From Bacillota bacterium (GTDB taxonomy: Bacteria; Bacillota; Dehalobacteriia; UBA4068; UBA4997): DNA of 64,000 nt. Both the position numbers and the translations under genes were made by a program. Shown one piece after another: positions 58,865-62,645 of the stretch (its first letter is position 1; each line of letters opens with the position of its first letter). The stretch covers positions 9,014 through 73,013 of the forward strand of contig JAFQHN010000025.1 in NCBI GenBank assembly GCA_017397935.1, given 5' to 3'. Below the pieces are notes generated by a model that was given only the letters and a program-made list of their open reading frames with translations, was not told the origin of the DNA and ran no database searches.

Positions 58865-58881
58865 TATGACGCAAAAAAATA

Positions 58882-58919
58882 ATCCGAACCAATCTGTATG
58901 GTTCGGATTATATTGCTTT
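58882..58919. terminator. Bidirectional hairpin terminator between carB and tRNA-Leu
   Basis: atccgaacc...ggttcggat stem with U-rich flanks. Confidence 0.55.
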
Positions 58920-59006
58920 GGTGCGAGAGACGGGACTTGAACCCGTACAGGAAGATTCCCGCTACCCCCTCAAAGTAGTGCGTCTGCCGATTCCGCCACT
59001 CTCACA
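58919..59006 (-). tRNA. tRNA-Leu (anticodon GAG)
   Basis: Manual fold: class II tRNA with long variable arm, anticodon loop UUGAGGG, encoded CCA. Confidence 0.8.
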
Positions 59007-59104
59007 TAAAGTTATAAATTTATAATAACCTTAAATATTATAGCAGTATCGGCGAAAAAAATCAAGCAGATTTTGTGCTGATTGTCAGTTTTTTTGCAGG
59101 GGAC

Positions 59105-61999
59105 TTAGGGCAGATATTGCTGCTCTATCTTGCTGATGCCGGGGCCGACGGTGGTTACCCAAAACGGTGGCTGAAAATCTCCGTCAAATTCGGCCAGATA
59201 AGCGGCAAATTCCGCTGCATCGGTGGTGATGTAATAATCACTGCTGCCGTCTTTGAAAAATTTATACTCGGTGCTGTCGGTAATTTGCAGACCATAAGGC
59301 CAGCTTTGCGGGTTATGGATATAATAGCCGTTATCCAGCTTGTCTGCGTCAATGCCCAGCTCTTTCAGCTTATCGGGGTTGGCCGTAGCTGTCAGATACA
59401 AAGCCTTGTCCAGATGGATAATGCTGCTTTCCTCCGGCACAAACTTGGTGATGTAGCCAAAATACTCGCTGACCGGCTGCTCCAAATACATGGGGTACGC
59501 CTTGCCGCCGTTTATTACCAAATCACGGGAGGTAATGCCCACGCCTGTTTGGGCGGTGTTATAAAGCTGGCCGTTGATGAATTCCAGCGCCACCTGTTCA
59601 GGGTCCAGCAGGGAGGGGCGGTGGCCACGGTCGCATTCTGCCTGTAATGTGGCATAATATTCCTCAACAGTTTGGTCGGTGTCCACTCTGACAAAATATT
59701 CGTGGTTGTTGCCATCCTTCCAGCGCTCCACACACCAAATGCCGTGCTCGCCCTGGGTGGCCGGCTGAGATAACAGCAGGTGGCAGGTCTCACCGGTGGA
59801 AAGCGGGAAGTAAACCAGTATATTGTTGCCGCCGTTGCCTCTGAATGTGGGTCCGCTGATCAGACCCTGGGCTTCCAAAGCCTGTTGCAGCGCGATTTGC
59901 AGGGCAAACAGCGAATATTCCTTGCCCGGGGTGTAAAAGAGGCCGTTTTGCTCATCATTGTTGGGAACAAGCGCCGCCAGCGCCGTACCATTCTGCGAGG
60001 TGTAGATGCCGAAGAAACCGGACGCATCAGGCATGGGCAGCATATAGCCGTTATCCGTCTGCATAATGTCATACGGGGTTGGCAGGGCGGCGGCCTTGGG
60101 GTCGTCAAAGTAGATTTTGCTGTCCACGCCGTAAACTGTCAGCGGAGAAGGCAGGTCGTCAAACATAAACTCCTGCGGCACTTTATGCATCTGTATATCC
60201 ACATCATAAGCGGTCAGGTCAAGGGCATTTACATAATGTTCAGCCGCCTTATCAACATAGTTTTTGATGAGGAAAGTGTCATTGTCATAGCATATTGCAA
60301 TTTGCAGATGGCTGATGTAGAAAATATCCTCGGCGGCATTTTCGCAGTTTTCCGGCAGGGCAAAGGACACTTTAATGTTGAGGTCCTGATAGCACAAACC
60401 CTGCAAAGCTTCGGTGTCGCCGTTGATAATCATTTGGCGCACTGCCTGTTGTTTCTCCGCCGGGGCAGCATTTTCATCCAGATTATAAGCGGCGATCAGC
60501 GCTTTTTGGGCGGTTTGCACAGCTTTTTCCTCATTCTCATCGGTAGCAGCGTATCCTTCCACCAGAGAGGACATATCGTAGCTGTTCATGGTCAGCGTGT
60601 AGACAATTTGGCCGTTATCACCCGGCTTCGCAGTAATCTCTGTCAGCTCATAATACGGCGGTGTACGCCATTCTGCGGGCATGGATGTAAAGGTTCCGTC
60701 AGCAAACTGAAACGGCTTCATATAATCGGTGGGCTGTACTGTCAGCTCTCCTGCGCCAAAATGACGGGCGGCATAATCCTGCACCTCGGCCAGGGTCACA
60801 CTGCCGGGGCTGTCGATGATGTTAAGGCCTTCCCAGACCAAATTATCGGCATAGTAAGCAAAAAGATAATCCACAGCGGTGATTTCATCTTTTGTTTCGG
60901 CGGCAAAAATGGGCAGAAAATCCCAATGGTGCTCGGCGGCAAAATCAAATACAGCCTCACGCAGCTCAGGGGTAATACCCTGCTGCCATTCCTCTGCCGC
61001 TAGCTGTGCGGCAAAATTGCGGTCAATGTCAATATTGTCATTATCTTCATTAACGGTCAGCGGTTTATTGCCGCCCAGCAGCAGTATGCCGGCCATTACC
61101 AGCACCACCGCGCTTATCGTCAGCCACAGGGTGGGTTTACGATAATTAAGCAGGTTTTTGATACGTTGCGCTGGGTCGCTCTCGCCAAAAGCCAGCGGAG
61201 AAAGCGGCCGTGCTTTGCCGCCGCCCGAAAGCCGCAGCAGGGATTGCGAATACTCACAGCGTACATCCTGCGGCATCTTACGCAGCACCAGCTCATCGCA
61301 GGCCATTTCCATATCCAGCATACTTAAACGGAACGCCAGCCAGACCAGCGGATTAAACCAATGCAGCGCCAGCGCAGCAAAGGCCAACAGCTTTACAATA
61401 TGGTCACCGCGGGAGAGGTGCGTTTGCTCATGCAGGATAATATACGGCATTTCCTGCTCTTGCAGAGTGGATGGCAGATAAATTTTGGGGGCCAAAACGC
61501 CCAGCGCAAACGGCATATCAATGTTGTCGGCCAGATAAATATTGTCACGCAGGTTTACTGCCCCAATCAGCCGTTTTTTCAGCCGCAGCAGAGAAATTAT
61601 ACTGCCTCCGGTGATGACGATAACGCCGCCCAGCCAAATCACGGCCAAAGTGTCGGCAATATCCTGCTTGGTGCCGGTGGGCACGGTCACACCCTCATAA
61701 AAAGTGCCGTTAAAGTAGGTGTTCACCGGCTCATCCAGCGCATTGATGCCGGAAGAAATGTGGAATTTGGGTTGTTCCAGCATTTGCGGCTCAATCAGTT
61801 GGCTTGCAGGTATCTGGCTGCCCGAAAACTCAAACGATACCGGGCAGAGCAAGCGGAACAGCACCACTGCCCACAGCAGATAAGTATAAAATTTGGGGGC
61901 TTTTTTCAGCGGCAGGCGCAGCAGCAGCACCGCCAAAATTACCAGAGAGCCGGTAAAGCTCATGTTGATGATTTGCAAAAACAGTTCCTTGATCGGCAT
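59105..61999 (-). CDS. M56 family (BlaR1/MecR1-like) membrane metallopeptidase signal transducer with an approximately 650-aa uncharacterised extracytoplasmic C-terminal domain
   Basis: 964 aa; an N-terminal four-TM M56 domain with HEQTH; the C-terminal region is not a PBP/beta-lactamase sensor fold by motif inspection (no SxxK, SxN or KTG); start overlaps the blaI stop. Confidence 0.8.
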   Translation of the reverse strand: MPIKELFLQIINMSFTGSLVILAVLLLRLPLKKAPKFYTYLLWAVVLFRLLCPVSFEFSGSQIPASQLIEPQMLEQPKFHISSGINALDEPVNTYFNGTFYEGVTVPTGTKQDIADTLAVIWLGGVIVITGGSIISLLRLKKRLIGAVNLRDNIYLADNIDMPFALGVLAPKIYLPSTLQEQEMPYIILHEQTHLSRGDHIVKLLAFAALALHWFNPLVWLAFRLSMLDMEMACDELVLRKMPQDVRCEYSQSLLRLSGGGKARPLSPLAFGESDPAQRIKNLLNYRKPTLWLTISAVVLVMAGILLLGGNKPLTVNEDNDNIDIDRNFAAQLAAEEWQQGITPELREAVFDFAAEHHWDFLPIFAAETKDEITAVDYLFAYYADNLVWEGLNIIDSPGSVTLAEVQDYAARHFGAGELTVQPTDYMKPFQFADGTFTSMPAEWRTPPYYELTEITAKPGDNGQIVYTLTMNSYDMSSLVEGYAATDENEEKAVQTAQKALIAAYNLDENAAPAEKQQAVRQMIINGDTEALQGLCYQDLNIKVSFALPENCENAAEDIFYISHLQIAICYDNDTFLIKNYVDKAAEHYVNALDLTAYDVDIQMHKVPQEFMFDDLPSPLTVYGVDSKIYFDDPKAAALPTPYDIMQTDNGYMLPMPDASGFFGIYTSQNGTALAALVPNNDEQNGLFYTPGKEYSLFALQIALQQALEAQGLISGPTFRGNGGNNILVYFPLSTGETCHLLLSQPATQGEHGIWCVERWKDGNNHEYFVRVDTDQTVEEYYATLQAECDRGHRPSLLDPEQVALEFINGQLYNTAQTGVGITSRDLVINGGKAYPMYLEQPVSEYFGYITKFVPEESSIIHLDKALYLTATANPDKLKELGIDADKLDNGYYIHNPQSWPYGLQITDSTEYKFFKDGSSDYYITTDAAEFAAYLAEFDGDFQPPFWVTTVGPGISKIEQQYLP

Positions 62000-62001
62000 G
62001 G

Positions 62002-62394
62002 TTATTCCCCCTTTGCCTTGTAGCTGTCAATCAGATGTTCCAGCTCGGTGATTTCCTGTTGGGAGAGGCCGCGTTTGCCGCCAAAGGCTACCAGAAAGCG
62101 CGGCAGAGAGCCGTTGAAATTATCCTGCACAAACTGCTGGCTCTTGGCCTGCTGAAAATCCTGCTGTGATATTTGGGCCGAGACCTGCCCGTTGTGGTTG
62201 GTAAACAGGCCTTTCTCGCACAGGCGGCGCAGCATGGTGTAGGTGGTGGATTTCTTCCAGCCAAACTCTGCCTCGCAAATCTTGATCAACTCACCGGAGG
62301 GGATGGGAGCATTCTGCCAGATGATCTTAGCAAAGCGGCTTTCCATTACACCCAGTTGCAGGTTGGCTTCCTGATAATCGGTCATCATAATCAC
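62002..62394 (-). CDS. BlaI/MecI/CopY family transcriptional repressor
   Basis: 130 aa; wHTH with ...LGVMESRFAKIIW... and a C-terminal dimerisation helix. Confidence 0.85.
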   Translation of the reverse strand: MIMMTDYQEANLQLGVMESRFAKIIWQNAPIPSGELIKICEAEFGWKKSTTYTMLRRLCEKGLFTNHNGQVSAQISQQDFQQAKSQQFVQDNFNGSLPRFLVAFGGKRGLSQQEITELEHLIDSYKAKGE

Positions 62395-62440
62395 ATCCCT
62401 CGCTCATAATTCTCACGCTATCATTCTTACACTACTATCC

Positions 62441-62460
62441 TAACACATTCTTAACACATT
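62441..62460. repeat. Direct repeat TAACACATT-N2-TAACACATT in the blaI upstream region
   Basis: Two identical 9-mers spaced 11 bp centre-to-centre (one helical turn), upstream of blaI. Confidence 0.4.
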
Positions 62461-62551
62461 TCGGCCTTAACTATCCCCGGTTTAACAGTTGTAGACCTCC
62501 ATGTTTAGTTTACAGGCATTAAACCAAATTGTCAAGTCTTTTTTTGCGGCG

Positions 62552-62586
62552 GAAAAGAGGTATTTGCACCTCTTATTTTTTTGCCT
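62552..62586 (+). terminator. Plus-strand hairpin plus T7 tract about 60 nt upstream of the second feoA
   Basis: aagaggt-atttgc-acctctt followed by ATTTTTTT. Confidence 0.5.
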
Positions 62587-62645
62587 GAATGCACAGCTTA
62601 AAGGTTGGCGGAATATTATGGAGTGTATAAAATTTTGTCAGCAGT

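Follow-up and report, generated by a model that had tools for sequence, protein, structure and literature searches.

A BlaI–M56 Gene Pair with a Large Non-Penicillin-Binding Ectodomain in an Uncultured Bacillota Genome

In a 64,000-nucleotide stretch of contig JAFQHN010000025.1 from an uncultured Bacillota bacterium (the window, whose numbering is used throughout), we have analyzed a BlaI-family repressor gene and the adjacent gene for an M56 (BlaR1-like) membrane metalloprotease with a large extracytoplasmic domain. The two genes probably constitute an autoregulated signaling operon of the BlaIR type, in which the sensor responds to something other than a β-lactam. Directly supporting this conclusion are the domain identities of the two proteins, the catalytic residues of the protease, the pairing of the genes, the conservation of the operators, the absence of a sensor of the penicillin-binding protein (PBP) type, and the extracytoplasmic relatives of the sensor modules. 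The locus belongs to the known class of atypical BlaIR pairs, in which the M56 domain is followed by an unassigned C-terminal region. Specific to this locus and its family are the size of the sensor and its predicted degree of order, a conserved block of three modules (C1–C3) that is accompanied by its own operator motif and an Ala|Phe site, and a rare additional module, X.

Gene Pair, Repressor, and Metalloprotease

The features of the two genes, up to the end of the membrane region, are the following.

62002-62388, minus strand: BlaI-family winged-helix repressor gene, 128 amino acids from the ATG at 62388, stop codon TAA at 62002-62004
62083-62088, minus strand: codons for A101-F102 of the repressor, the predicted cleavage site and the equivalent of N101|F102 in the alignment to MecI
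59105-61999, minus strand: M56 (BlaR1-like) membrane metalloprotease gene, 964 amino acids, ATG at 61997-61999
61070-61999, minus strand: M56 transmembrane/protease region, residues 1-310, from the PF05569 match and the alignment to BlaR1
61418-61432, minus strand: HEQTH, residues 190-194
61307-61309, minus strand: zinc ligand E231
61181-61198, minus strand: P-L-A-F-G-E loop, residues 268-273
61070-61135, minus strand: last transmembrane helix, residues 289-310, from hydrophobic-segment prediction, leading into the ectodomain

A preliminary description, made from the DNA sequence alone, had recognized a BlaI repressor paired with an M56 protease at 59105-62520, and the profile searches bear this out for two adjacent genes on the minus strand. 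The repressor is matched by Pfam family PF03965, Penicillinase_R (E 8.4e-22, 78.1 bits versus a cutoff of 22.6 bits), and residues 9-282 of the 964-residue protein are matched by PF05569, Peptidase_M56 (E 3.3e-54). The larger protein is identical to GenBank entry MBQ3200074.1, which is labeled "hypothetical protein [Firmicutes bacterium]". The repressor gene is followed in the same direction by the M56 gene, and the junction reads GAA TAA CC ATG, with a gap of 2 nt in place of the ATGA overlap that had been described. As arranged, the two genes would be cotranscribed. The ATG at 62388 is preceded by an AGGGA ribosome-binding site and is the start chosen by gene callers in four independent loci (128-residue product); an alternative GTG start at 62394 would extend the open reading frame (ORF) to 62002-62394 and the product to 130 residues. 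Judged by its sequence, the locus is a BlaIR pair in the broad sense, with a PF03965 repressor, an M56 protein with an intact zinc site, adjacent genes, and palindromes in its own promoter. Neither protein was matched by the PADLOC anti-phage models at E < 0.01, and no paralog of the sensor modules was found within the window. Opposite the M56 gene (59075-62023), the plus strand holds antisense ORFs of 190, 407, and 220 amino acids, which we treat as noncoding shadows because homology supports the minus-strand frame throughout.

A sequence search of the PDB with the 964-residue protein returned BlaR1 as the sole match, and this for the M56 part only, which aligns to residues 180-266 of S. aureus BlaR1 (8exp and 8exs). 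Residues H190, E191, H194, and E231 align to H201, E202, H205, and E242 of BlaR1, and the HExxH...E zinc site is intact. These four residues, together with D229, C234, D235, and F271, are invariant in 66 members of the family. The autocleavage bond of BlaR1 is S283|F284 (PMC9834060). By positional comparison, the L-A-F-G of the protease loop is found at the position of this autocleavage site, with F271 located 40 residues after E231 and BlaR1 F284 located 42 residues after E242.

The repressor aligns to MecI (1okr) over residues 15-121, and the alignment with MecI and BlaI spans the full length. BlaI and MecI are canonically cleaved at N101|F102, and the P1' phenylalanine is the main specificity determinant for cleavage by BlaR1 (PMC9834060). 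The Asn-Phe scissile bond of the canonical BlaR1/MecR1 systems is absent here; Ala101-Phe102 is found instead, with the P1' phenylalanine kept. Among 69 family repressors, the phenylalanine of this bond is present in all 69 and the alanine in 64. Both the repressor and the protease are thus predicted to be substrates at an Ala|Phe bond, in keeping with the dominance of the P1' phenylalanine described for BlaR1. From this alignment, we infer that the repressor is cut at A101|F102 by the M56 protease.

Promoter, Operators, and Leader

The elements upstream of the repressor gene are listed below.

62507-62535, minus strand: sigma-70-type promoter, TTGACA (62530-62535), 17-nt spacer, TAAACT (62507-62512), scoring 10/12 in the promoter scan
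62508-62524, minus strand: predicted operator 1, GTTTAATGCCTGTAAAC, a 17-bp palindrome over the promoter spacer and the -10 box
62480-62496, minus strand: predicted operator 2, GTCTACAACTGTTAAAC, a 17-bp palindrome at about +4 to +20 that starts 28 bp after operator 1
62441-62460, minus strand: direct repeat of AATGTGTTA, two copies (62452-62460 and 62441-62449) with a period of 11

The promoter region of the operon is invariant in the orthologs of 84-88% identity, and transcription would start near 62500. From their sequences, the two 17-bp palindromes are likely to be the operators of the pair. The pattern GTYTA-N7-TARAC occurs in the 64-kb window at operators 1 and 2 only, where 0.10 occurrences are expected and none of 100 shuffled sequences reached 2. 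Counting of dyads in 68 blaI upstream regions of the family gave the motif GTCTAcA-N3-TgTAgAC, and two copies of this motif, 28-31 bp apart, are found in 52 of these regions. Within 0.8 Mb of related loci, 115 of the 125 occurrences of the pattern lie upstream of blaI, as do most of the other ten when mis-called ORF starts are allowed for. Operator 2 of the 84% orthologs (L006-L008) is GTTTACAACTGTTAAAC, in which the perfect GTTTA/TAAAC dyad is restored. The TACA/TGTA dyads that had earlier been put forward as candidate operators are elements of these two palindromes; the operator itself is more accurately described as the GTYTA-N7-TARAC pair.

A close precedent is BlaI_0696 (Clo1313_0696) of C. 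thermocellum, which was found by DNA affinity purification sequencing and electrophoretic mobility shift assays to bind inverted GTCTAT sequences 5 nt apart; each target promoter carries two such sites, and the regulon is tiny and autoregulatory (Hebdon et al. 2021, PMC8457756). The arrangement GTCTAT-N5-ATAGAC is the same 17-bp palindrome, whereas the sites in the window are the GTTTA/TAAAC variant. Since the only promoter in the window that bears the operators is that of the operon itself, autoregulation is the sole output that is supported.

The direct repeat, which reads TAACACATT on the plus strand and has no third copy in the 64 kb, had also been proposed as an operator. The two copies are indeed one helical turn apart, but they lie downstream of both palindromes in a leader of ~110 nt. 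The repeat is kept in the 84-88% orthologs. Other members of the family have their operators at about -65 and -34 from the start codon and no such leader, so the repeat is absent from the wider family. It is probably not an operator but a clade-specific element of the leader. The leader matched no Rfam family and has no significant RNA fold (z-score +0.78), and on these results a riboswitch or attenuator was rejected. Each copy of AATGTGTTA holds a Met-Cys-stop mini-ORF (ATG TGT TAA and ATG TGT TAG), and in two orthologs a stop codon (TAA or TAG) is retained although the base following the 9-mer varies, which may be chance with n = 3.

Between the divergent promoters of the operon and of feoA, a hairpin (AAGAGGT-loop-ACCTCTT) followed by a run of T is found at 62555-62574. 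Two orthologs have kept this hairpin, but a third has lost it by a clean deletion, which shows that it is dispensable. A block of ~45 nt upstream of feoA (62590-62640) is invariant in the window and the 84-88% orthologs (three aligned). This block includes a promoter-like TTGGCG-17-TAAAAT on the plus strand and may be the feoAB promoter with a site for a regulator.

Ectodomain, Family, and Genomic Neighborhood

The ectodomain consists of the 654 residues that follow the last transmembrane helix. Homologue mapping with BLAST and jackhmmer places its module boundaries as follows.

60266-61012, minus strand: module X, residues ~330-578, a rare α/β module
59900-60265, minus strand: module C1, residues 579-700, one helix and a β-sheet in the AlphaFold2 model
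59495-59899, minus strand: module C2, residues ~701-835, predicted local distance difference test score (pLDDT) >90
59108-59494, minus strand: module C3, residues ~836-964, β-rich, ending in EQQYLP, pLDDT ~90-97

The earlier view of this region as a large, acidic, Tyr/Asp-rich extracytoplasmic domain was upheld: residues 320-964 have a net charge of -63 and a pI of 4.2 and contain 7.9% Asp, 7.1% Glu, and 6.5% Tyr. The SxxK, SxN, and KTG motifs of penicillin-binding proteins had been reported as missing. This is correct for SxxK and K[ST]G, which are found nowhere in the 964-residue protein, but a single SxN is present (SQN668). In the Pfam scans of this protein, neither the transpeptidase family PF00905 nor any of the wall-binding domains SLH, LysM, SH3b, and PG_binding was detected, and when the full-length protein and its individual modules were scanned against Pfam and NCBIfam, with E values up to 10, nothing beyond M56 was matched.

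AlphaFold2 predicts residues 579-964, from an alignment of 40 sequences, as a compact α/β assembly with a mean pLDDT of 86 and a predicted template-modeling score (pTM) of 0.84. The model of residues 312-585, made from 8 sequences, is of moderate quality (pLDDT 67, pTM 0.70) because the alignment of this N-terminal part is shallow; profile searches for extra module sequences in a word-indexed database returned few (4 and 17). When the 579-964 model was compared with 350,542 PDB chains using Foldseek, the best match had an E value of 0.22 and a TM score of 0.15, and the comparison with BFVD gave nothing meaningful. The 312-585 model has no significant match in the PDB. For module X, weak Foldseek hints of an NTF2-like fold (probability ≤0.23) were not accepted. 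As modeled, the ectodomain matches none of the PDB folds searched, although a new fold is not established because the queries were multi-domain models. The fold search likewise gave no match to a PBP or transpeptidase sensor, in agreement with the original assignment. Without PBP motifs and without a transpeptidase or class-D fold, the ectodomain is not a penicillin sensor.

Modules C1-C3 form a conserved block of 386 residues (the C-part, residues 579-964), within which C2 carries the signature LSQPxxQGxxGIWCVERW...EYYAxLQ...LLDPxxVA. The family was surveyed with one genome per species (GTDB representatives). Relatives of the C-part were found in 158 species, and the best 80 loci were kept for analysis; the species of the window is not among these, and the best identity there is 45%. 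The relatives come from Clostridia (Peptostreptococcaceae, Anaerovoracaceae, Tissierellia, Oscillospiraceae, Syntrophomonadaceae, and Peptococcaceae) and from Paenibacillus. In the best 80 of the 158 loci, 67 of the 82 ORFs with a C-part are M56 proteins with blaI immediately upstream, and the gap between blaI and the M56 gene is mostly 2 nt. Clustering of the neighboring ORFs in these loci gave no conserved partner other than blaI; ABC ATPases, found at 12 of the 80, were judged to be generic. The description of the module as novel was overstated, given how widely the C-part is shared and that atypical M56 proteins make up ~94% of the family.

The C-part is the entire ectodomain of typical M56 proteins of 680-760 residues, and some lipoproteins carry it as well. 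The search for other carriers that had been suggested for this domain thus located C2 in M56 proteins and lipoproteins and the C-part across the species surveyed, with X very rare. With the ectodomain as the query, 267 representative clusters were matched at E < 1e-3, mostly through C2 only; about half are M56 proteins and the remainder have a signal peptide and lipobox. C3 alone occurs as small proteins (P0097, P0129, P0139, P0152, P0162, and P0179). For module X, searches of 1.84 billion representatives and 5.8 billion clusters gave only about a dozen relatives: stand-alone lipoproteins of 237-329 residues, whose genes are found among housekeeping genes with no link to M56, and one M56 protein of 982 residues. 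By hhalign, module X is unrelated to the C-part (probability 0.5%), and an internal duplication within the ectodomain was rejected. Three other C-part M56 proteins of 887-889 residues, P0014 (L010), P0015, and P0040, have an unrelated insert of ~210 residues where X is found, so that a variable insertion point lies between the membrane and the C-part.

Among 68 proteins scanned, the modules of the relatives co-occur with SLH, M23, Big_14, DUF4825, and DUF4829. The lipoprotein relatives and the co-occurrence with SLH, M23, and Big_14 place the sensor modules outside the cell. In P0042 (595 residues, JGI), an M23 peptidoglycan endopeptidase domain comes after the C-part, and the N-terminus resembles the end of an M56 domain. 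The sequence of this fusion hints that the sensor block works beside the cell wall.

The operon is flanked on one side by the divergent feoA-feoB and on the other by tRNA-Leu(GAG) and carB. The wider neighborhood holds feoAB, a pair of genes for an extracytoplasmic function (ECF) sigma factor and its probable anti-sigma factor, TauE, tRNA-Leu, carAB, and purF. No gene for a β-lactamase or for PBP2a or another PBP was found among the neighboring genes. Immediately downstream of the M56 gene is the tRNA-Leu(GAG) gene (58919-59005, minus strand). It has a strong promoter-like site of its own at 59065-59037, where TTGATT-17-TATAAT is accompanied by an upstream TG, and it shares with the convergent carB a bidirectional terminator hairpin of 13 bp (58879-58911). 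No convincing intrinsic terminator was found between the M56 stop codon and the tRNA promoter (candidate z-score -0.11). Beyond feoB on the same contig (L001 1201-2632), the ECF sigma gene is followed by an overlapping gene for a protein of 281 residues without a Pfam match, which is probably the anti-sigma factor. These genes would constitute a second envelope-signaling pair near the BlaIR pair. In ortholog L006, the sigma gene was called at 82 amino acids only.

Proposed Mechanism, Alternatives, and Related Systems

By analogy with the homologous BlaR1/BlaI system (PMC9834060), proteolysis at the predicted cleavage sites, a ligand, and a regulon beyond autoregulation would be expected. The repressor, probably as two dimers, would occupy both palindromes over the -10 box and the transcription start and keep expression of the operon low. 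An extracellular cue, most probably one connected with the envelope or with a surface, would act on the ectodomain and activate the cytoplasm-facing M56 gluzincin. The protease would cut itself in cis at the L-A|F-G loop and then cleave the repressor at A101|F102, between the DNA-binding and dimerization domains. The operon, and any unlinked genes that bear the operator, would then be derepressed.

Certain of the results count against this interpretation. Of the 14 positions of the family consensus, only 10-11 are matched by the operators in the window, and no operator-bearing target gene besides the operon was found in the 64 kb or next to the relatives. The predicted P1 residue is alanine and not the canonical asparagine. 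Small domains of a common fold could have escaped the Foldseek searches with multi-domain models.

Within the framework of a nonpenicillin sensor, it is possible, though somewhat doubtful, that the C1-C2-C3 block and module X are new extracytoplasmic ligand-binding folds, that the block defines a distinct class of receptor, and that the 964-residue protein is a rare two-input version of it. If this is so, the block would report a specific environmental or envelope-derived molecule via one-step proteolysis, the "GIWCVERW" module C2 being common to hundreds of Bacillota M56 sensors and lipoproteins. The second input would be a lipoprotein-type X inserted at the variable point that separates the core sensor from the membrane. 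We consider it unlikely that the ectodomain is instead a wall-associated module that reports the integrity or remodeling of the envelope, as has been proposed for CenIR, with a regulon of envelope genes elsewhere in the genome. Such a role would agree with the co-occurrence of C2 with SLH, M23, Big_14, and lipoproteins and with the M56-C-part-M23 fusion P0042, and a very acidic sensor would suit a cationic or metal-bridged component of the wall; CenIR itself, which among atypical pairs has been studied best, controls genes of the envelope, and a search for its inducer found none (PMC13492132). However, the co-occurrence is seen in few of the 68 proteins scanned, the Pfam scans detected no recognized wall-binding domain in the 964-residue protein, and no conserved envelope gene is found beside the pair in the best 80 of the 158 loci.

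It is very improbable that the pair controls the divergent feoA-feoB genes through a CopY-like, metal-responsive repressor. The divergent arrangement of feoAB and blaI is common to the window and every ortholog at 84-98% identity, but synteny between species this close says little, and no conserved feoAB neighbor is found in the 80 relatives from other species. The repressor is weakly similar to TIGR02698 (CopY/TcrY; E 4.7e-9), with a score of 36.6 bits that is far under the cutoff of 121.95; it has only two cysteines (positions 38 and 57), and the C-terminal CxC-x4-CxC metal motif is absent from its sequence. All three aligned orthologs retain the block upstream of feoA without change, but the operators are ~80-150 bp from the promoter-like site within it (62605-62633), and the window holds no further copies. 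A β-lactam sensor with a very divergent penicillin-binding domain is effectively refuted. The best NCBIfam match of the M56 region is indeed blaR1_generic (E 2.4e-24), but this match covers residues 104-314 only and reaches 85.6 bits versus a cutoff of 400 bits. Against such a sensor are also the absence of SxxK, KTG, and PF00905, the lack of a transpeptidase or class-D match for either the confident 579-964 model or the moderate 312-585 model, and the absence of a β-lactamase or PBP gene nearby.

The preliminary description had allowed that the 964-residue ORF could be a fusion artifact, created by misassembly or a frameshift between an M56 gene and a lipoprotein gene. X, C2, C3, and the whole C-part do exist as separate lipoproteins or small proteins. 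The artifact is nevertheless refuted because independent assemblies carry the same ORF: the exact 964-residue product is intact on six contigs (ENA and Logan assemblies) from several samples and assemblers. A single ORF is also retained in orthologs of 961-963 residues with 84-88% identity (an NCBI metagenome-assembled genome and Logan runs), the same module order is found in the protein of 982 residues with 32% identity over the ectodomain, and the C-part is fused to M56 in 67 related genomes.

The interpretation that we favor, that of an autoregulated BlaIR-type operon with a nonpenicillin sensor, can be compared with what has been described for related systems. Kurtz et al. (2026) surveyed ~15,000 M56 proteins and found that ~6% have a transpeptidase sensor and that ~94% of the BlaR-like proteins have no penicillin-binding domain (PMC13492132). 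The commonest class is M56 with a C-terminal region without an identifiable domain, 96% of M56 proteins have a blaI-like gene within five genes, and BlaR-like proteins without a transpeptidase domain act with BlaI-like repressors (PMC13492132). The arrangement in the window had been called canonical, which is overstated in view of the ~94% of the family that lack a transpeptidase sensor (PMC13492132). The features shared with the canonical BlaR1-BlaI and MecR1-MecI systems of S. aureus and B. licheniformis are the adjacent and codirectional genes for the repressor and the M56 protein, the multipass membrane gluzincin with HExxH...E, the invariant phenylalanine at the P1' position of the autocleavage site and of the repressor site, and the autoregulated promoter with two palindromic operators that contain TACA/TGTA. 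The differences are a sensor of 654 residues and four modules with no class-D or transpeptidase-like domain or fold match, a predicted P1 alanine in place of asparagine or serine, and the absence of a linked gene for a β-lactamase or PBP2a. The canonical box of BlaI, MecI, and CopY is TACAnnTGTA, to which the motif here is similar, although its half-sites are GTCTAcA with a 3-nt center.

The CenIR system of C. difficile and other atypical BlaIR pairs also combine a BlaI-like repressor with an M56 protein that has no transpeptidase domain, and the InterPro class "M56 followed by a region with no identifiable domain" applies equally to the protein described here (PMC13492132). CenR ends in a mostly unstructured tail of ~125 residues, whereas a well-folded structure is predicted for the 654-residue region here, with a pLDDT of 86 over the C-terminal 386 residues. 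The regulon of CenIR has been defined and a neighboring gene is part of it, but no linked target was found here in the 64-kb window. CopY and TcrY share the winged-helix fold family and have two palindromic operators per promoter with ACA/TGT. They differ from this repressor in the C-terminal CxC...CxC, in scoring against TIGR02698, where the present protein falls far under the cutoff, and in being paired with copper ATPases rather than a protease. The atypical pairs of Mycobacterium (M. tuberculosis and M. abscessus, as cited in PMC13492132) and PvmSR of Pseudomonas aeruginosa (bioRxiv 10.64898/2026.08.03.742534) similarly have a BlaR without a penicillin-binding sensor and do not control β-lactam resistance, but they come from unrelated lineages.

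Nothing in the current understanding of these systems is overturned by this locus, which adds a further member, from the genome of an uncultured Bacillota bacterium, to a known class. One-step transmembrane signaling by BlaIR-type pairs is very common in Gram-positive bacteria, and ~94% of the pairs sense signals that have not been identified (PMC13492132). To these the locus adds a well-defined case, with a large, confidently folded, and modular sensor that has no Pfam or PDB counterpart. Members of the family are found in culturable Paenibacillus, Anaerovorax, Alkaliphilus, and Maledivibacter; Paenibacillus typhae, Anaerovorax odorimutans DSM 5092, and Alkaliphilus peptidifermentans DSM 18978 are examples of species that have the C-part sensor. 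The operator motif, together with the Ala|Phe site predicted for repressor and protease alike, makes the family experimentally tractable.

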